Source of the DNA: a virus
Length of the DNA stretch: 21,416 nt
Reading direction: 5' to 3' (one strand)
Virus genome (UHGV): UHGV-1738141
Part shown: positions 2,021-12,748 of the stretch, piece after piece
Numbering within the stretch: position 1 is the stretch's first letter
Layout of the letters: each line of letters starts with the position of its first letter
Notes under the pieces: model-generated
Database searches by the model: none
What the model was told of the DNA's origin: nothing
What the model saw: only the letters and a program-made list of their open reading frames with translations
Program-made: the position numbers and the translations under genes

Positions 2021-2497
2021 ATGCAGGTACTAAATTCCCAGCGTAAAGCTTTCCTCGATATGTTGGCGTGGTCAGAAGGAACGGATAACGGGCGACAGCC
2101 AACCCGCAATCACGGCTACGACGTTATTGTAGGTGGTGAGTTATTCACGGATTACTCCGATCACCCTCGCAAACTTGTCACGCTAAACCCCAAACTCAAA
2201 TCAACAGCAGCCGGACGTTACCAGCTTCTTTCCCGTTGGTGGGATGCCTATCGTAAGCAGCTTGGCCTGAAAGACTTCTCTCCAAAAAGCCAGGACGCTG
2301 TTGCACTGCAGCAGATTAAGGAGCGTGGCGCTTTACCGATGATTGATCGCGGTGACATCCGTCAGGCAATCGACCGTTGCAGCAATATCTGGGCTTCACT
2401 GCCGGGCGCTGGTTATGGCCAGTTCGAGCATAAGGCTGACAGCCTGATTGCAAAATTCAAAGAGGCTGGCGGAACGGTCAGAGAGATTGAGGTATGA
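2021..2497 (+). CDS. R: Endolysin, lambda R-type lytic transglycosylase
   Basis: Translation ([21 protein letters not shown]...[31 protein letters not shown]...) closely matches phage lambda R as I remember it. aaggag RBS precedes ATG 2021. Confidence 0.9.
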
Positions 2498-2961
2498 GCA
2501 GAGTCACCGCGATTATTTATGCTCTGGTTATCTGCATCATCGTCTGCCTGTCGTGGGCGGTCAATCATTACCGTGATAACGCCATCGCCTACAAAGAACA
2601 GCGTGATAAAAAAGTCAGTGAGCTGAAGCAGGCGACCGCCACCATTACTGACATGCAGATGCGTCAGCGTGATGTTGCTGCGCTCGATGCAAAATACACG
2701 AAGGAGTTAGCTGATGCGAAAGCTGAAAATGATGCTCTTCGGCGCAAGCTTGATAATGGTGGTCGGGTGCTCGTCAAAGGAAAATGCTCTGTGCCATCCT
2801 CAGCCGAAACCTCCAGCGCCTCCGGCATGGGCAATGATGCCACCGTCGAACTCTCTCCAGTTGCTGGACGAAACGTTCTCGGTATCCGGGACGGAATCAT
2901 CAGAGACCAGACAGCACTGAGAACGCTTCAGGAATATATCAGGACGCAATGCCTTCGATGA
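2494..2961 (+). CDS. Rz: Rz i-spanin (inner-membrane spanin subunit)
   Basis: N-terminal TM anchor [30 protein letters not shown] followed by coiled-coil-like region, closely resembling lambda Rz at the N-terminus. ATGA overlap with the R stop. C-terminal third diverges from lambda. Confidence 0.85.
2714..2920 (+). CDS. Rz1: Rz1 o-spanin (outer-membrane lipoprotein), embedded in the +1 frame of Rz
   Basis: Signal peptide with lipobox ([19 protein letters not shown]), proline-rich mature region [11 protein letters not shown], and its own aaggag RBS at 2701-2706. Embedded architecture as in lambda Rz/Rz1. Confidence 0.8.
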
Positions 2962-3135
2962 TAGCGATAATTTTACTCATCATCCTTCACATTTGGCTCT
3001 GTAGACAGGGTGGTGATCACTTCTGGAGTGAATCCAGATTAAATATCTCATTGCTGATGCTTGATATTGAGCATCTTGCGCGCGGTAAGGGGCTGCGTTG
3101 AGATAAGAGCCAGTCATTACAAATACCAGGATTTA

Positions 3136-3158
3136 GCCTCGTATTCGCGGGGCTTTTT
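3136..3158 (+). terminator. Rho-independent terminator downstream of the lysis cassette
   Basis: Stem gcctcg / cggggc (one G-U wobble), loop tattcg, followed by ttttt (3154-3158). Confidence 0.5.
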
Positions 3159-3170
3159 ATTGTCATTACA

Positions 3171-3196
3171 AAAGCCACTCCCTACAGAGTGGCTTT
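3171..3196. terminator. Perfect 9-bp hairpin flanked by A and T tracts (possible bidirectional terminator or regulatory stem-loop)
   Basis: aaagccact (3171-3179) and agtggcttt (3188-3196) are exact reverse complements with an 8-nt loop ccctacag. Confidence 0.35.
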
Positions 3197-3324
3197 GATA
3201 ATGGTTTATACCCTACACGGGATAACTTAACTGATATCCCTTTTAACGGATAAACGGAGCCAACAATGGCAGAGAATGTCGGCATTATGGCAGTTAAATT
3301 TGGATAAATCGGAGATTAGTACAT

Positions 3325-3675
3325 ATGCCGCCACGAATCCCGAAAGCCTGCCGTGCTCGAGGTTGCCGTAATACCACCACTGACCCGTCAGGCTATTGCG
3401 AAAGCCACAAAAGCGAAGGCTGGAAGCAATACAAACCTGGACAATCCCGTCATCAGCGCGGCTACGGTTCGAAGTGGGACAGTATCCGCGCGCGTGTCCT
3501 GAAGCGTGACAAAGGCCTGTGTCAGTTATGTCTGCGTTCTGGTGTGGTGCGTGAGGCGAAAACTGTTGACCACATCATCCCTAAAGCGCATGGCGGCACT
3601 GATGCTGACAGTAATCTGCAGAGTCTGTGCTGGCCGTGTCATAAGGCGAAGACGGCCCGTGAACGGTTAAAGTGA
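3325..3675 (+). CDS. HNH endonuclease (terminase-associated type)
   Basis: N-terminal Cys cluster (C..C...C), HNH-type motif DHIIPKAHGG...N, C-terminal CWPCH zinc ligands. Located immediately upstream of the small terminase gene as in HK97-like cos phages. Confidence 0.85.
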   Translation: MPPRIPKACRARGCRNTTTDPSGYCESHKSEGWKQYKPGQSRHQRGYGSKWDSIRARVLKRDKGLCQLCLRSGVVREAKTVDHIIPKAHGGTDADSNLQSLCWPCHKAKTARERLK

Positions 3676-3760: not shown

Positions 3761-3800
3761 TATACCCGCGAAAAATGAAATTTAACCAGGAGTGCCGCAT

Positions 3801-4286
3801 ATGGCTGGAACGGCGGGGCGTTCCGGGCGTCGCCCCAAGCCAACGGCGCGCAAGGCGCTGGCCGGAAACCCCGGCAAGCGAGCCCTGAATAAAGATGAAC
3901 CTGTTTTTACGCCCATCAAAGGTGTTGAGCCACCGGAGTGGTTCGCTGAAGAAGATCTCCCTCTCGCCACGATCATGTGGCAACTGACAACCAAAGAACT
4001 CTGCGGTCAGGGCCTGCTGTGCGTGACTGACCTGGCGGTACTTGAGCGGTGGTGTGTGGCCTATGAATTCTGGCGACGTGCCGTGAAAAATATTGCCAGA
4101 CAGGGCAACACCATCACCGGTGCAATGGGCGGCATGGTCAAAAATCCGGAGCTGACCGCCAAAAAAGAACAGGAGTCCGAGATGAGCAGCACGGGGGCAA
4201 TGCTCGGACTCGACCCCAGCAGCCGCCAGCGTCTGATTGGCCTGGCGGGGAAGAAGAAAGCCACTAACCCGTTTCTGACAATCTGA
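3801..4286 (+). CDS. Terminase small subunit (P27-family-like)
   Basis: Start at ATG 3801 with aggag RBS at 3788-3792; track ORF begins at GTG 3792. Basic N-terminus [13 protein letters not shown] and position immediately upstream of the large terminase. Confidence 0.75.
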
Positions 4287-4299
4287 AAATCATCGAATC

Positions 4300-6033
4300 A
4301 TGAGCCGGAAATCTTACCCCAACGTAAATGCAGCCAATCAGTATGCCCGTGATGTCGTGCGCGGAAAGATTGTGGCCTGCCAGTTTGTGATTCAGGCCTG
4401 CCAGCGCCATCTTGATGACCTGATGGCGGAAAAAAGTAAGTCGTTTCGTTACCGCTTCGACAAGGACCTGGCTGAACGGGCCGCCAAATTTATTCAGCTG
4501 TTGCCGCATACCAAGGGTGAGTGGGCATTCAAACGGATGCCCATCACGCTGGAGCCGTGGCAGCTCTTTGTGATCTGCTGTGCGTTTGGCTGGGTCAATA
4601 AAGGTACCCGGCTGCGCCGCTTCCGGGAGGTGTATACCGAAATCCCCCGTAAGAACGGCAAATCGGCAATCTCTGCCGGTGTCGCCCTGTATTGTTTTGC
4701 CTGTGATAACGAGTTTGGCGCGGAAGTGTATTCCGGTGCCACGACAGAGAAACAGGCGTGGGAAGTCTTTCGCCCGGCGCGACTGATGTGTAAACGCACA
4801 CCCATGCTGACGGAAGCGTTCGGGATTGAGGTTAACGCCTCAAACATGAACCGTCCGGAGGATGGCGCGCGGTTTGAACCGCTGATCGGTAACCCCGGTG
4901 ATGGTTCATCACCCCACTGTGCGGTGGTGGATGAATATCACGAGCACGCCACCGATGCGCTTTATACCACGATGCTTACCGGGATGGGGGCGCGACGTCA
5001 GCCACTGATGTGGGCCATCACCACCGCCGGGTACAACATTGAGGGGCCGTGCTACGACAAGCGGCGGGAAGTTATCGAGATGCTCAACGGTTCGGTACCC
5101 AACGATGAACTGTTCGGGATCATCTATACCGTTGACGAAGGCGATGACTGGACCGACCCGCAGGTGCTGGAAAAAGCCAACCCGAATATTGGCGTGTCGG
5201 TTTATCGCGAATTTTTGTTAAGTCAGCAGCAGCGTGCGAAAAATAACGCCCGTCTGGCAAACGTCTTTAAAACAAAACACCTCAATATCTGGGTGTCGGC
5301 GCGTTCGGCGTATTTCAACCTGGTGAGCTGGCAGAGCTGCGAGGATAAATCACTGACCCTTGAGCAGTTCGAGGGGCAGCCGTGCATTCTGGCCTTTGAC
5401 CTGGCGCGTAAGCTGGATATGAACAGCATGGCGCGACTTTATACCCGCGAGATTGACGGTAAAACGCATTACTACAGTGTGGCCCCGCGTTTCTGGGTAC
5501 CGTATGACACGGTGTACAGCGTCGAGAAAAATGAAGATCGCCGGACAGCCGAACGCTTTCAGAAATGGGTGGAAATGGGCGTTCTGACTGTTACCGCTGG
5601 TGCGGAGGTGGATTATCGCTACATCCTCGAGGAGGCCAAAGCGGCGAACAAAATCAGCCCGGTCAGTGAGTCACCCATCGACCCCTTCGGGGCGACCGGG
5701 CTGTCGCATGACCTTGCTGATGAAGACCTGAACCCCATCACCATCATTCAGAACTACACCAACATGTCCGATCCGATGAAAGAGCTGGAAGCGGCGATTG
5801 AATCGGGGCGCTTTCATCATGACGGCAATCCCATCATGACCTGGTGTATCGGCAACGTGGTCGGCAAAACCATTCCGGGTAACGATGATGTGGTGAAGCC
5901 TGTCAAGGAGCAGGCGGAAAACAAAATCGATGGTGCGGTTGCACTGATTATGGCGATCGGTCGGGCAATGCTCAAAGAACCCGACGATTTCCTCTCATCT
6001 CTTGATCCGGACGATGTTCTCTTAATTCTATGA
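4300..6033 (+). CDS. Terminase large subunit (ATPase + nuclease)
   Basis: 577 aa with deviant Walker A-like [10 protein letters not shown], acidic motifs (VVDEYHE) and a C-terminal nuclease-like region; canonical position between small terminase and portal. Confidence 0.9.
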
Positions 6034-6191
6034 AATCACTAATTGCTGATGTTATCGGGTTGGCTGGTTTTGGCCTGCTTACGTGCGGGTTTTACCTGCA
6101 GTTTGGTATGGCTCCGGCTCTGATGCTGTCCGGCGGTTTACTGCTGGTGGGCGCACTGGCTATGGCCAGAAGGGGGACGCGTGCTGCTTGA
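6030..6191 (+). CDS. Small (53 aa) hydrophobic ORF, putative two-TM membrane protein, absent from the ORF track
   Basis: My translation: [56 protein letters not shown] overlaps the terminase stop (ATGA) and the 3' end overlaps the portal start. Coding status unproven. Confidence 0.35.
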
Positions 6192-7407
6192 TGCTCTGTT
6201 CAGAAGTAAATCACTGGAGAATCCTTCCACCCCGATAACCGGGGATGCCGTTGATACTGATGGGCTGTTCCGGGCAGACGTTTATGTCAGTCCTGAAACT
6301 GCGATGAAACTGGCTGCGGTGTATTCCTGTATCTATGTCCTGTCTTCCAGCCTTGCCCAGATGCCGTTGCATGTTATGCGCAGGCACAATGGGAAGGTTG
6401 AGCCCGCACGCGATCATCCGGCGTTTTATCTGGTTCATGATGAGCCCAATACCTGGCAAACCAGTTACAAATGGCGCGAACTGAAGCAACGTCACATCCT
6501 TGGCTGGGGGAATGGGTATACCTGGGTGAAACGTAATCGTCGCGGTGAAGTCATATCCCTGGATTGCTGTATGCCGTGGGAAACGACGCTGATGAATACT
6601 GGTGGCCGATACACCTACGGTTTGTACAACGAATATGGGGCGTTTGCGATCAGCCTCGACGATATGATCCACATCCGTGCGCTGGGTAATAATCAGAAGA
6701 TGGGGCTGAGTCCGATTATGCAACATGCCGAAACAATAGGCATGGGGATGAGCGGTCAGAAATACACAGAAAGCTTCTTCAGCGGTAATGCCCGTCCGGC
6801 GGGGATAGTATCCGTTAAAAGCGGACTCAATAAGGACAGCTGGGGCTGGCTTAAAGATCAGTGGCAGAAGGCATCGCAGGCGTTACGCAGCCAGGAAAAC
6901 AAAACCATGCTGCTGCCAGCCGATCTGGATTACAAGGCACTGACTGTGTCGCCAGTTGACGCTCAGATCATTGACATGATGAAACTGAACCGTTCAATGA
7001 TTGCCGGTATTTTCAATATTCCTGCGCACATGATTAATGACCTCGAAAAAGCCACCTTCTCCAATATTTCTGCGCAGGCGATTCAGTTTGTCCGCTACAC
7101 GATGATGCCGTGGGTGACGAACTGGGAGCAGGAGCTTAACCGTCGCTTGTTTACCCGCGCTGAGTTAGCCGCCGGGTATTACGTCAGGTTCAATCTGACG
7201 GGGCTTTTACGCGGAACTCCGCAGGAGCGCGCGCAATTCTATCACTTCGCTATTACCGATGGATGGATGAGCCGTAATGAGGCCCGCGCATTCGAGGATA
7301 TGAATCCGGTTGAAGGGCTGGATGAGATGCTGGTAAGCGTGAATGCTGCTAACCCGGCAGGAGATTTTAAGCCCCCAAAAAAAGATGAGGGAAAAACCAA
7401 TGAATGA
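6181..7407 (+). CDS. Portal protein, HK97 family
   Basis: 408 aa; N-terminal region with AVYSCIYVLSSSLAQMPLHV resembles the conserved HK97-type portal N-terminus. Probable GTG start with agaaggggga RBS; lies between terminase and prohead protease. Confidence 0.85.
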   Translation: MLLDALFRSKSLENPSTPITGDAVDTDGLFRADVYVSPETAMKLAAVYSCIYVLSSSLAQMPLHVMRRHNGKVEPARDHPAFYLVHDEPNTWQTSYKWRELKQRHILGWGNGYTWVKRNRRGEVISLDCCMPWETTLMNTGGRYTYGLYNEYGAFAISLDDMIHIRALGNNQKMGLSPIMQHAETIGMGMSGQKYTESFFSGNARPAGIVSVKSGLNKDSWGWLKDQWQKASQALRSQENKTMLLPADLDYKALTVSPVDAQIIDMMKLNRSMIAGIFNIPAHMINDLEKATFSNISAQAIQFVRYTMMPWVTNWEQELNRRLFTRAELAAGYYVRFNLTGLLRGTPQERAQFYHFAITDGWMSRNEARAFEDMNPVEGLDEMLVSVNAANPAGDFKPPKKDEGKTNE

Positions 7408-8012: not shown

Positions 8013-9242
8013 ATGAAACTGCATGAACTGAAACAGAAACGTAATACTATCGCAACTGACATGCGTGCCCTGAATGAAAAAATTGGTGATAACGCATGGA
8101 CGGAAGAGCAGCGCACTGAGTGGAACAAAGCAAAATCCGAACTGGAAGCGCTTGATGAACGAATTGCACGCGAAGAAGAACTGCGTCGTCAGGATCAGGC
8201 GTACATTGAAAGCAATGAGGAAGAGCAGCGTCAGAATCTTGATCCGGAAAACAATCCGCAACAGGATGAGAAACGAGCTCAGGTTTTTGATAAGTGGATG
8301 CGTCACGGTGCCAGTGAGCTGACATCAGAAGAACGAAAGGCGTTGCGTGAACTTCGTGCCCAGGGCGTAGCTCAGGATGAAAAGGGCGGATATACCGTAC
8401 CAGAAACATTCCTGGCGAAAGTTGTTGAGAAGATGAAGTCCTACGGTGGCATCGCCAGTGTGGCGCAGATTCTTACCACTTCTGACGGTCGCACTATGGA
8501 GTGGGCAACAGCTGATGGTACTTCCGAAGTTGGTGTTCTGCTGGGCGAAAATGAAGAAGCCGGTGAAGAAGACACCGATTTCGGTATGGGAAGTCTTGGG
8601 GCGCTCAAAATGACATCGAAAATCATTCGTGTGTCTAATGAGTTGCTGCAGGACAGCGCGATCGATATGGAAGCTTATCTTGCCCGTCGTATTGCTGAAC
8701 GTATTGGTCGTGGTGAAGCCCGTTATCTGATTCAGGGAACTGGTGCTGGTACGCCTAAACAACCCAAAGGGCTGGTCGCATCTGTGACCGGCACAACACA
8801 GACTGCCGCGGCAAATACGGTGAAGTGGCAGGAAATTCTGGCTCTGAAACACAGCATTGATCCTGCATATCGTCGCGGGCCGAAATTCCGCCTGGCGTTT
8901 AACGATAATACGCTGAAACTGATCAGTGAGATGGAAGACGGTCAGGGACGCCCTTTATGGTTGCCGGATATTGTTGGTGTGGCACCTGCTTCAGTGTTGA
9001 ATGTACCGTATGTCATTGATCAGGAAATTGATGATATCGGGGCGGGTAAAAAATTCATGTTCTGTGGTGACTTTGATCGCTTCATTATCCGTCGTGTGCG
9101 ATACATGATTCTTAAACGTCTGGTTGAGCGTTACGCGGAATATGATCAGACCGGTTTTCTGGCCTTCCATCGTTTTGACTGTATCCTGGAAGACACCTCT
9201 GCCATTAAAGCGCTGGTGGGGAAAGGTAGCGTTGGTGGTTGA
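8013..9242 (+). CDS. Major capsid protein, HK97 fold, with N-terminal coiled-coil delta (scaffolding) domain
   Basis: 409 aa. The first ~100 aa are charged and coiled-coil-like (ELKQKRNTIATDMRALNEKI...EELRRQDQAY), as in HK97 gp5. No separate scaffold gene lies between protease and capsid. Confidence 0.9.
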   Translation: MKLHELKQKRNTIATDMRALNEKIGDNAWTEEQRTEWNKAKSELEALDERIAREEELRRQDQAYIESNEEEQRQNLDPENNPQQDEKRAQVFDKWMRHGASELTSEERKALRELRAQGVAQDEKGGYTVPETFLAKVVEKMKSYGGIASVAQILTTSDGRTMEWATADGTSEVGVLLGENEEAGEEDTDFGMGSLGALKMTSKIIRVSNELLQDSAIDMEAYLARRIAERIGRGEARYLIQGTGAGTPKQPKGLVASVTGTTQTAAANTVKWQEILALKHSIDPAYRRGPKFRLAFNDNTLKLISEMEDGQGRPLWLPDIVGVAPASVLNVPYVIDQEIDDIGAGKKFMFCGDFDRFIIRRVRYMILKRLVERYAEYDQTGFLAFHRFDCILEDTSAIKALVGKGSVGG

Positions 9243-9320: not shown

Positions 9321-9644
9321 ATGCTGTTAAAAATGGAAGAGATTAAGCTTCAGCTCCGTCTGGATGATGATTTCTCTGATGAAGATGAGTTGCTTGAACT
9401 GCTTGGTAAGGCCGCTCAGAGTCGTACGGAAAACTTCCTTAACCGTAAGTTGTATGCAACCGCAGATGACAGGCCTGCGGATGATCCTGATGGGCTTGTG
9501 ATATCTGATGATGTGAAGCTGGCGCTTCTGCTACTTGTCAGCCATTTCTACGAAAACCGCTCAACGGTTACAGACGTTGAGAAAATGGAGTTGCCAATGA
9601 GTTTTAACTGGTTGGTTGTTCCTTATCGCCTTATACCACTATGA
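9321..9644 (+). CDS. Head-tail connector protein (gp6-like)
   Basis: Start at ATG 9321 after aggagg RBS; track ORF begins at 9276 inside the terminator. Acidic ~107 aa protein with LKLQLRLDDD...DELLELL pattern typical of gp6-like head-tail connector proteins. Confidence 0.65.
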   Translation: MLLKMEEIKLQLRLDDDFSDEDELLELLGKAAQSRTENFLNRKLYATADDRPADDPDGLVISDDVKLALLLLVSHFYENRSTVTDVEKMELPMSFNWLVVPYRLIPL

Positions 9645-11097: not shown

Positions 11098-11268
11098 ATG
11101 TTTGTCAAACCTGTTAAAGGGCGGTCAGTGCCTGACCCTGCCCGCGGCGACCTTTTGCCCGCCGAAGGGCGAAATGTTGACGAGAACAACTACTGGCTGC
11201 GCCGTGAAGCAGCGGGTGATATCCGGCGCGTGAATAAAAAGGTGAATACCGATGACGATAAGCTTTAA
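11098..11268 (+). CDS. Small conserved protein (56 aa), DUF2635-like, absent from the ORF track
   Basis: My translation: MFVKPVKGRSVPDPARGDLLPAEGRNVDENNYWLRREAAGDIRRVNKKVNTDDDKL. gagga RBS at 11088-11092; overlaps the sheath start. The KP..G..V.DP.....LPAEG....E..YW.RR...GD pattern matches small proteins I recall upstream of Mu-type sheath genes. Confidence 0.45.
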   Translation: MFVKPVKGRSVPDPARGDLLPAEGRNVDENNYWLRREAAGDIRRVNKKVNTDDDKL

Positions 11269-12748
11269 CACCATTCCGTCGAATACGCTGGTTCCGTTGT
11301 TTTATGCGGAAATGGATAACCAGGCGGCGAATACTGCACAGGACAGCGGAGCATCGCTGCTGATTGGTCATGCCAATAACGGTGCAGAGATTGTTGCCAA
11401 CAGTCTGGTACTGATGCCGTCGGCAGACTATGCACGCCAGATTTGTGGTGCGGGAAGTCAGCTGGCGCGTATGGTCGAGGCTTATCGCCAGACCGACCCG
11501 TTTGGCGAGCTGTATGTGATTGCCGTTCCTGAATCCACAGGCGCGGCGGCAACAGTTACGCTGACGGTGACCGGGGCAGCAACCGAAACCGGCACGGTGA
11601 ATGTTTATGTGGGACGTACCCGCGTGCAGGCACCGGTGACCAACGGCGATAACGTCGCGACGATTGCCAGCAGTATCAAAGATGCCATCAATGCCGTTCC
11701 GGCCCTGCCGTTTACGGCCTCATCTTCGGCTGGTGTGGTTACATTGACCGCTCGCCATAAGGGGCTTTGCGGGAATGAAATTCCTGTCAGCCTCAATTAC
11801 TACGGCTTCGGTGGGGGCGAAGTGCTGCCAGCGGGCGTACAGATTGCCGTGGCGACGGGGACCGCCGGAACGGGCGCTCCGGTTCTCACCGGCGCGGTGG
11901 CTGCAATGGCGGATGAGCCGTTTGATTATATCGGTCTGCCGTTCAACGACACGGCCTCTGTTAACACGCTGGTGACCGAGATGAACGATACCAGCGGTCG
12001 CTGGAGCTATGCGCGTCAGCTGTATGGTCATGTGTATACGGCAAAGGCCGGCACACTGTCAGAACTGGTGAACGCAGGTGACCAGTTTAACCAGCAGCAC
12101 ATCACCCTGGCGGGGTACGAAAAAGAGACCCAGACGCCTGCCGACGAGCTGGCAGCCAGCCGTACCGCCCGCGCAGCGGTGTTTATCCGCAACGATCCGG
12201 CACGTCCCACGCAGACCGGTGAGATGGTGGGTATGCTGCCTGCGCCGAAGGGGAAACGGTTCACGATGACCGAACAACAGACCCTGCTGTCTCATGGCGT
12301 GGCAACGGCGTATGTCGAAAGCGGGGTACTGCGCATTCAGCGTGATGTCACCACGTACAGGAAAAACGCTTACGGGGTTGCGGATAACAGCTACCTCGAC
12401 AGTGAGACACTGCATACCAGCGCGTATGTACTGCGCAAACTGAAATCCGTCATTACCAGTAAGTACGGGCGTCACAAGCTTGCCAGTGACGGTACCCGCT
12501 TTGGTCCCGGTCAGGCGATTGTCACCCCGGCGGTGATCAAAGGGGAACTGCTGGCAACCTACCGTCAGCTTGAGCGTGCGGGGATCGTGGAAAACTACGA
12601 ACTGTTTAAGCAGTACCTGGTTGTGGAGCGTGATGCCAGCGATCCGAACCGCCTGAACACGCTGTTCCCGCCTGACTATGTTAACCAGTTGCGTGTCTTT
12701 GCCGTGGTTAACCAGTTCCGTCTTCAGTATTCAGAGGAGTCTGCATAA
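11252..12748 (+). CDS. Contractile tail sheath protein (Mu gpL-like)
   Basis: 498 aa; N-terminus MTISFNTIPSNTLVPLFYAE typical of Mu-type sheath proteins; followed directly by the tube gene. Confidence 0.85.
   Translation: MTISFNTIPSNTLVPLFYAEMDNQAANTAQDSGASLLIGHANNGAEIVANSLVLMPSADYARQICGAGSQLARMVEAYRQTDPFGELYVIAVPESTGAAATVTLTVTGAATETGTVNVYVGRTRVQAPVTNGDNVATIASSIKDAINAVPALPFTASSSAGVVTLTARHKGLCGNEIPVSLNYYGFGGGEVLPAGVQIAVATGTAGTGAPVLTGAVAAMADEPFDYIGLPFNDTASVNTLVTEMNDTSGRWSYARQLYGHVYTAKAGTLSELVNAGDQFNQQHITLAGYEKETQTPADELAASRTARAAVFIRNDPARPTQTGEMVGMLPAPKGKRFTMTEQQTLLSHGVATAYVESGVLRIQRDVTTYRKNAYGVADNSYLDSETLHTSAYVLRKLKSVITSKYGRHKLASDGTRFGPGQAIVTPAVIKGELLATYRQLERAGIVENYELFKQYLVVERDASDPNRLNTLFPPDYVNQLRVFAVVNQFRLQYSEESA

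Follow-up and report, generated by a model that had tools for sequence, protein, structure and literature searches.

The 21,416-nucleotide (nt) stretch of the virus genome UHGV-1738141 analysed here (the window) carries the late region of an SfV-like prophage, and the present work concerns a small open reading frame (ORF) on its plus strand. This mini-ORF comprises 53 codons at 6030..6191 and lies between the gene for the large terminase subunit (TerL; 4300..6033, +), in which ATPase and nuclease domains were matched, and the portal gene (6181..7407, +; PF04860). Its ATG (6030-6032) and the TGA stop codon of TerL (6031-6033) are merged in an ATGA at 6030..6033 (+), and its own stop codon, TGA at 6189-6191, is located inside the portal ORF, which begins with a GTG at 6181, giving an overlap of 11 nt; in Klebsiella phages, the portal starts with an ATG at the same position. 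A preliminary description of the sequence had proposed a 53-codon ORF overlapping both genes, and its coordinates were reproduced exactly. The product of 53 amino acids (aa), termed mini-protein in the following, belongs to phrog_7105 and is identical in sequence to the RefSeq entry WP_000838374.1. As judged from the sequence comparisons described below, 6030-6191 is a genuine protein-coding gene of the late (head morphogenesis) operon of the phage.

Conservation and coding status

Ranked by grand average of hydropathy, the mini-ORF comes second among the 122 six-frame ORFs of the window that are 40-90 aa long, so that its sequence by itself would not prove a gene, and it is conservation that provides the strong evidence. 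The frame had been called unlisted, which is correct for the ORF track used in the preliminary description and for some older phage records, but not for RefSeq/PGAP, which annotates the coding sequence (CDS) as a hypothetical protein, namely as WP_000838374.1 in a genome identical over the query and as WP_015364398.1 in another genome. A CDS of 162 nt is also annotated at the same place in Edwardsiella phage EPP-1 and Klebsiella phage vB_VIPKPNMC05. No annotation is present in SfV (NC_003444) or Klebsiella phage 1 LV-2017, yet the frame is intact in both.

All 98 close loci have the frame open, with 53 codons in 93 and 52 codons in five of them, and an ATGA or GTGA is found at the TerL/mini-ORF junction in 98/98. 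Their hosts include E. coli, Shigella (phage SfV), Atlantibacter, Kluyvera, Citrobacter, Buttiauxella, Kosakonia, Phytobacter, Rouxiella, Symbiopectobacterium, Klebsiella and Edwardsiella. In 107 more viral contigs, found via distant members, the mini-gene is always positioned between TerL and portal, and among the readable further loci the frame is intact in all except two sister loci with an in-frame fusion. In total, approximately 200 related loci, ranging from Escherichia to Ralstonia, have an intact frame. A distant clade with a portal approximately 59% identical has kept the frame at a length of 54-65 codons despite another junction geometry, i.e. a gap of 3-4 nt after TerL and either a 4-nt overlap or a 10-nt gap at the portal. 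A clear member of the mini-protein family is also encoded by an unannotated Ralstonia phage whose portal is 57% identical, and Morganella and relatives (loci L179-L193, P0053 type) keep the mini-frame as well.

The ratio of nonsynonymous to synonymous substitution rates (dN/dS, Nei-Gojobori, non-overlapping codons) was 0.15-0.3 for the mini-frame at informative divergence, with changes concentrated at third positions; for the +1 and +2 frames, it was approximately 1 and 2-3, respectively. For the same pairs of loci, values of 0.17-0.21 were obtained for the mini-gene versus 0.04-0.05 for the portal; the mini-gene is under purifying constraint, but one that is four to five times weaker than that on the portal. 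As a summary range, 0.17-0.24 can be given for the mini-frame. The rows for the TerL of L010 and the portal of L179 were left out of the per-pair table due to misalignment, and the mini-gene value of 0.78 between the window and L179 lies at saturation and was left uninterpreted. Loss of the frame in relatives, which had been named beforehand as the observation speaking against a gene, was not encountered; instead, relatives as distant as those in Edwardsiella, Klebsiella, Morganella and Ralstonia retain the frame known from E. coli, with a dN/dS well below 1. The purifying selection specific to the mini-frame rules out the non-coding overlap that had been considered as an alternative.

Translation signals

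The mini-ORF has no Shine-Dalgarno (SD) sequence of its own, the duplex energy being 0.0 kcal/mol in the window and 0 to -2.8 kcal/mol in most of phrog_7105. Together with the ATGA overlap, this suggests that its translation is best explained by termination-reinitiation from TerL. We infer that the mini-protein is made together with TerL and portal, at or below the level of TerL. Promoter- and terminator-like sites occurred at or below shuffle expectation and none of them brackets the mini-ORF, and the GC content is continuous, with 0.49-0.57 across the mini-ORF versus 0.47-0.61 in the flanks.

The portal SD (-8 to -11 kcal/mol), the strongest of the head module, is contained in the final codons of the mini-ORF; in the window it reads AAGGGGGA at 6170..6177 (+), with -10.8 kcal/mol. 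The codons of the basic C-terminal tail of the mini-protein, RRGTRAA (6168..6188, +), also serve as the portal ribosome-binding site, R48-G49 being encoded by AGG-GGG. Since the SD lies inside the tail codons, a constraint on nucleotides accounts for at least part of the conservation seen in the C-terminal tail. A possible RNA switch was considered as well, given that the minimum free energy fold of 6000-6230 pairs the pyrimidine-rich end of TerL with the portal SD (z = -1.4). This candidate was rejected, because across 36 diverse loci, 27-nt windows drawn at random from the flanking genes paired at least as strongly (median rank 0.62).

The record of SfV (NC_003444, L003) lacks the mini-ORF (2289-2450) and annotates the portal at 2392-3666. 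This start is 48 nt upstream of 2440, a position backed by the SD sequence, the PGAP calls and the Klebsiella ATG. The portal start of the SfV record is probably 48 nt too far upstream.

Predicted structure of the mini-protein

Two hydrophobic segments had been noticed in the frame, and Kyte-Doolittle hydropathy places them at approximately residues 3-23 and 25-47, in agreement with the helices predicted by AlphaFold2. Using a 29-member alignment, AlphaFold2 returned a helical hairpin with helices at residues 2-25 and 27-51 (mean predicted local distance difference test score 85, predicted template modelling score 0.56), so that both approaches point to two transmembrane (TM) helices. Predicted TM helix 1 (6036..6098, +; approximately residues 3-23) carries the near-invariant D7, the invariant G13 and G20, and Y22-L23. 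It is followed by a short turn, QFGMAP (6099..6116, +; residues 24-29), with the near-invariant G26 and a predicted location on the periplasmic side, and by predicted TM helix 2 (6111..6167, +; approximately residues 28-46) with the invariant G35. Among the 29 diverse members, G13, G20 and G35 are invariant, and D7, L17, Y22, L23, G26 and L31 are conserved in at least 90%.

The mini-protein is thus predicted to be an inner-membrane helical hairpin with both ends in the cytoplasm. The N-in/C-in topology follows from the positive-inside rule, given K2 at the one end, R47, R48 and R51 at the other, and an uncharged turn QFGMAP. In the model, the hairpin is predicted to pack through its unvarying glycines, G13 and G20 on helix 1 and G35 on helix 2.

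A probable distant relationship to YmfR

The mini-protein matched phrog_7105, a PHROG without an assigned function, with E = 9.2e-22 (residues 1-52 versus profile positions 1-52 of 52), as did 29/29 aligned relatives. Clustering of this family gives 28 clusters at the 90% and 30 representatives at the 50% identity level, the latter nearly all 48-69 aa long. The ORF belongs to it without any difference, sharing the length (52-53 aa) and the slot between TerL and portal. No model for the mini-protein exists in Pfam or NCBIfam, sequence searches of Pfam, NCBIfam, PADLOC and the PDB with the mini-protein and with YmfR returned nothing meaningful, and with P0043 as query no relative was found among viral contigs.

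A second family came into view through phrog_502 ("membrane protein"), the type of which is YmfR (E = 1.5e-27) of the defective prophage e14 in E. coli K-12. The mini-protein of the window matched phrog_502 only weakly (E = 1e-4; reverse cross-family match 0.022) and showed no similarity to YmfR in pairwise BLAST, but 23/29 members of phrog_7105 matched phrog_502, the best with E = 2e-7. Comparison of the two family alignments by hhalign gave a probability of 84% (E = 7.7e-6, 49 collinear columns), a value that may be inflated by composition in short hydrophobic proteins and to that extent counts against the link. In the alignment, G13, G20 and G35 coincide with G14, G21 and G35, which are invariant in YmfR, and Y22-L23 with W23-L24. 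Moreover, the slot proteins of Burkholderia phage phiBtTUL1a and Vibrio phage K315 match both PHROGs, with E-values of 5e-15 and 1e-6 for the Burkholderia protein, and the three glycines are still invariant in the joint phrog_7105/YmfR alignment. A profile of this joint alignment retrieved 357 clusters, of which those listed are almost all 52-61 aa long and without Pfam domain; names in the set are at most "prophage protein" or "putative membrane protein". We conclude from these profile comparisons that phrog_7105 and phrog_502 probably represent two branches of one unnamed superfamily of the TerL-portal slot, in which the mini-protein is a distant relative of YmfR and not a member of its family.

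YmfR is likewise found between TerL and an HK97-family portal, the gene order in K-12 being aaaE-ymfR-beeE, where aaaE is a terminase remnant and beeE a portal remnant. It shares with the mini-protein the two predicted TM helices, the short Pro/Gly turn and the basic C-terminal tail, and its C-terminal codons likewise form the portal SD, the invariant GG(E/K) being encoded by GGA-GGT. In contrast to the 53-aa mini-protein, YmfR has 60 aa, and its gene has an SD of its own and an 11-nt gap after TerL instead of an ATGA overlap without SD. The portal going with YmfR is only 27% identical to that of the window, and the TerL tail is different. The RNA of ymfR increased approximately 23-fold (log2 fold change 4.52), together with other e14 genes, upon an SOS-inducing siderophore-antibiotic treatment (PMC10012262), which indicates that the defective e14 prophage still transcribes the slot gene on induction.

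Occupancy of the slot between TerL and portal

Among 1388 E. coli records matching the window at 5700-6500, 257 match through the junction, and the remainder match the TerL part only. In these remaining records (e.g. UTI89), the slot is filled by a 60-aa gene that is named ymfR by PGAP. Complete E. coli genomes carry phrog_7105 in 256 cases and YmfR (phrog_502) in 1360 cases, and related slot genes are present in Ralstonia, Vibrio and Burkholderia phages. Members of the superfamily were always found between TerL and an HK97-family (PF04860) portal.

The preliminary description had regarded a small membrane protein at this position as unusual. The opposite was found: modules composed of HNH endonuclease (3325-3675 in the window), P27-family small terminase (TerS, 3792-4286), TerL, portal, S78 prohead protease (to 8002) and HK97-fold capsid protein (8013-9242) regularly hold a slot gene. 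It is present at every locus whose portal is at least 57% identical to that of the window, and absent only in distant modules. In a Streptococcus phage, the slot between TerL and portal contains an unrelated ORF of 208 aa.

Exchange of TerL tail, mini-protein and portal

The TerL proteins of the window and UTI89 are 99% identical over residues 1-566, whereas the portals are only 27% identical, and the DNA identity breaks at approximately 5955, within the last 26 codons of TerL. The reverse combination exists as well: TerL bodies that are only 35-39% or 58% identical occur together with an SfV-type portal (80-87% identical) and a mini-protein of phrog_7105. The last 15 residues of TerL (5986..6030, +) co-segregate with the mini-ORF and the portal and not with the TerL body: the motif DFLSxLDPD(D/E)xLLxL is present in all TerL proteins that accompany an SfV-type portal, irrespective of the lineage to which the body belongs, and is common to TerL lineages only approximately 36% identical overall (compare L005, L011, L146, L179 and L206). 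The TerL of UTI89, with its YmfR-type portal, ends with DTLSDHIESYGIRSL instead. These categorical mosaics identify the TerL C-terminal tail, the mini-protein and the portal as the recombining unit. At the YmfR junction, the TerL tail, ymfR and the portal start are contiguous in 1369/1373 matching E. coli records.

Docking of the terminase on the portal through its C-terminus is known from other phages, such as lambda (gpA) and T3/T7 (gp19), which makes a co-adapted interface plausible. From its pattern of co-segregation, the TerL C-terminal tail is probably a portal-docking tail.

In the subgroup L179-L193, the mini-protein is 36-38% identical to that of the window while the portal is approximately 80% identical. 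Either the mini-protein evolves much faster than the portal in this subgroup, or it has been swapped within the cassette.

Two fusions of the mini-protein with the portal were observed. In the sister contigs L204 (255-1523) and L205, which correspond to IMG/VR UViG_2617271263_000004 and 2617271262_000003, residues 1-30 (helix 1) of the mini-protein are joined in frame to approximately residue 16 of the portal by one event, a 112-nt microhomology deletion between CACCCnGATCA repeats. In P0038, a metagenomic protein of 131 aa that ends at the contig edge, a frameshift near codon 40 fuses the whole hairpin to the portal, which follows a 9-residue linker and is read from its first methionine; the alternatives here are a second fusion of natural origin and a sequencing error of 1 nt. 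With one deletion event and one possible sequencing error, the use of the fusions as evidence of interaction was dropped.

Functional interpretation

The comparisons show the mini-gene to be a conserved frame under selection that travels as a member of an exchange cassette and constitutes an integral gene of the head module and not a moron; the reading as a whole, including the predicted hairpin, we consider reasonably probable. Regarding its function, we tentatively propose that the product is anchored in the membrane and assists in assembling the portal or prohead or in packaging, a possibility that draws on analogy and that we hold with considerable reserve. As a membrane-anchored accessory of the portal vertex, the hairpin would tether or chaperone the nascent portal, or a complex of TerL tail and portal, at the inner membrane, and this membrane step would act during prohead initiation or packaging. 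More speculative, and in our view doubtful, is the extension that YmfR-like hairpins in general tether or chaperone the portal vertex, such that a large HK97-type clade of Proteobacteria would start its heads or dock its packaging motor at the inner membrane, with TerL tail, mini-protein and portal as a co-adapted three-part interface exchanged together. To our knowledge, no membrane step has been described for HK97-type head assembly, T4 being the only case. In T4, assembly of the portal initiator gp20 takes place on the inner membrane and requires a chaperone of the virus, gp40 (PMC9958956). The parallel is functional alone, in that a phage factor at the inner membrane sets up portal assembly, and no sequence relationship of gp40 to the mini-protein is claimed. 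The T4 genes 40 and 20 are not adjacent to each other.

Several observations weigh against such a role at the portal. The slot gene is absent in HK542 of the HK022/HK97 type (portal 26% identical to that of the window), Klebsiella phage ST13-OXA48phi12.2 (27%), Moraxella Mcat15 (29%), Burkholderia phiBt-TXDOH (31%), Vibrio 1223 (25%) and Ralstonia YO159_2 (27.5%), and likewise in an Stx2c phage (24%). Its absence from HK97/HK022-type phages implies that it is not universally required and that HK97-type heads assemble without it. The identity of the mini-protein shows rank correlations (Spearman) of 0.81 with TerL and 0.77 with the portal, values that do not discriminate between the two; partial correlations failed as well to separate TerL from portal as the closer partner, and co-variation statistics were abandoned. 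The argument for linkage to the portal therefore rests on the categorical mosaics. Furthermore, the overlap with the portal start would maintain the linkage whatever the function, and both fusions described above are single events and were treated as anecdotes. The literature found lists ymfR and gives no function for YmfR. In addition, our literature search retrieved no paper discussing a small membrane protein between TerL and portal.

Among the alternatives, a late membrane protein that shields the infected cell or blocks the DNA entry of other phages, i.e. the moron-like superinfection exclusion factor put forward in the preliminary description, appears unlikely. Small membrane proteins with such an activity are known, for example Imm of T4 and gp15 of HK97, and the mini-protein resembles them in being small, phage-encoded and, as predicted, a hairpin of the inner membrane; PHROGs also assigns the related phrog_502 to its category "moron, auxiliary metabolic gene and host takeover". 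However, morons have their own promoter and terminator, a deviant composition and a sporadic occurrence, none of which applies to the mini-gene. It is present in all close relatives, where it diverges with the portal, and it lacks a promoter, a terminator, an SD and a composition shift of its own, which makes its expression in the lysogen unlikely, while the RNA of its relative ymfR follows the other induced e14 genes. Neither a PADLOC defence model at E <= 1 nor a Pfam family was matched.

Quite unlikely, too, is a lysis-timing factor in the form of a class II holin, a pinholin or an antiholin-like hairpin involved in late membrane permeabilisation. Two predicted TM helices, an N-in/C-in topology as suggested by the charge distribution, a short basic C-terminal tail and late expression would fit, class II holins having this general two-TM architecture. 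Yet the mini-ORF is situated outside the lysis cassette (1586-2961), which lies approximately 4 kb upstream and is itself complete, with an S-type holin (PF05106, 1586-2017), endolysin (2021-2497), Rz (2494-2961) and Rz1 (2714-2920). No holin family of Pfam was matched by the mini-protein, and a role in lysis leaves the fixed place before the portal and the co-transfer with it unexplained.

We regard it as very unlikely that the mini-protein is a virion or ejection protein, carried at or in the portal vertex and entering the host membrane upon infection to aid DNA entry. The genetic linkage to the portal would agree with this, and hydrophobic helices could form a channel by glycine-mediated packing. 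On the other hand, the PDB searches retrieved no solved phage structure with a related chain, and a membrane-inserted protein would be hard to load into a cytoplasmic prohead. The family also occurs in an SfV-type phage with a contractile tail, and we know of no such ejection factor in contractile-tail phages.

Least credible is an unimportant peptide whose frame acts as a translational spacer or coupling device from TerL to portal or is a chance overlap: the ATGA overlap, the absent SD and the embedded portal SD do intertwine the translation of the three genes, and C-terminal conservation is partly explained at the nucleotide level, but the purifying selection acts on amino acids and is specific to the mini-frame, the invariant residues persist across the superfamily although the DNA is saturated with changes, the frame is kept under differing junction geometry, the portal has a strong SD of its own, and the pairing of TerL end and portal SD is no better than that of random windows.

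With a RefSeq hypothetical protein and a PHROG family in existence, the object as such was already known. The present analysis connects it with YmfR and adds that the slot is constant, that exchange takes place as a three-part cassette and that the portal SD is dually coded. For annotation, the mini-frame deserves to be called as a gene; the reference record of SfV lacks it. In over 1600 complete E. coli genomes and in phages of several proteobacterial orders, the portal gene is constantly accompanied by one for a tiny membrane protein, and its superfamily includes ymfR of K-12, a gene that nobody has studied. If the mini-protein acts on the portal, there would be a membrane step in HK97-type head assembly or packaging, and the block recombination of TerL tail, mini-protein and portal would be explained; if its target is something else, it would be one more small uncharacterised late protein.

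Deletion breakpoints and other features of the window

Three independent large prophage deletions share a left breakpoint that corresponds to window positions 6162-6165, inside the mini-ORF. Their left ends are at 4129-4133 in L221, 4133-4136 in L222 and 4132-4133 in L224; right ends lie at 9566, 11035 and 18648. A fourth deletion has the same left breakpoint as judged by protein sequence (P0024). The shared breakpoint is located 12-15 nt 3' of a perfect Chi octamer, GCTGGTGG at 6143..6150 (+), which lies within TM helix 2 and forms codons L38-G41. The window contains seven Chi octamers, six of them on the plus strand (110, 431, 1245 on the minus strand, 1251, 1731, 6143 and 9212), versus 0.94 expected, and 0/100 shuffles reached seven. 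Chi-limited RecBCD resection could explain the deletion hotspot; as one deleted prophage carries an octamer with one mismatch, this explanation stays a lead. P0018, P0021 and P0022, which had been considered as mini-ORFs with other partners, turned out to be deletion-decayed prophages missing the genes from portal through capsid.

Directly after Rz/Rz1, another small ORF of 50 aa with a hydrophobic N-terminus is located at 2949-3101 (+), for which PGAP gives the hypothetical protein WP_001139680.1 without Pfam match. A DNA methylase gene (N6/N4 DNA methyltransferase, PF01555; 553-1605, +) lies just upstream of the lysis cassette. Downstream of the capsid gene, the window continues with contractile-tail genes of the SfV type, among them the sheath gene at 11252-12748.

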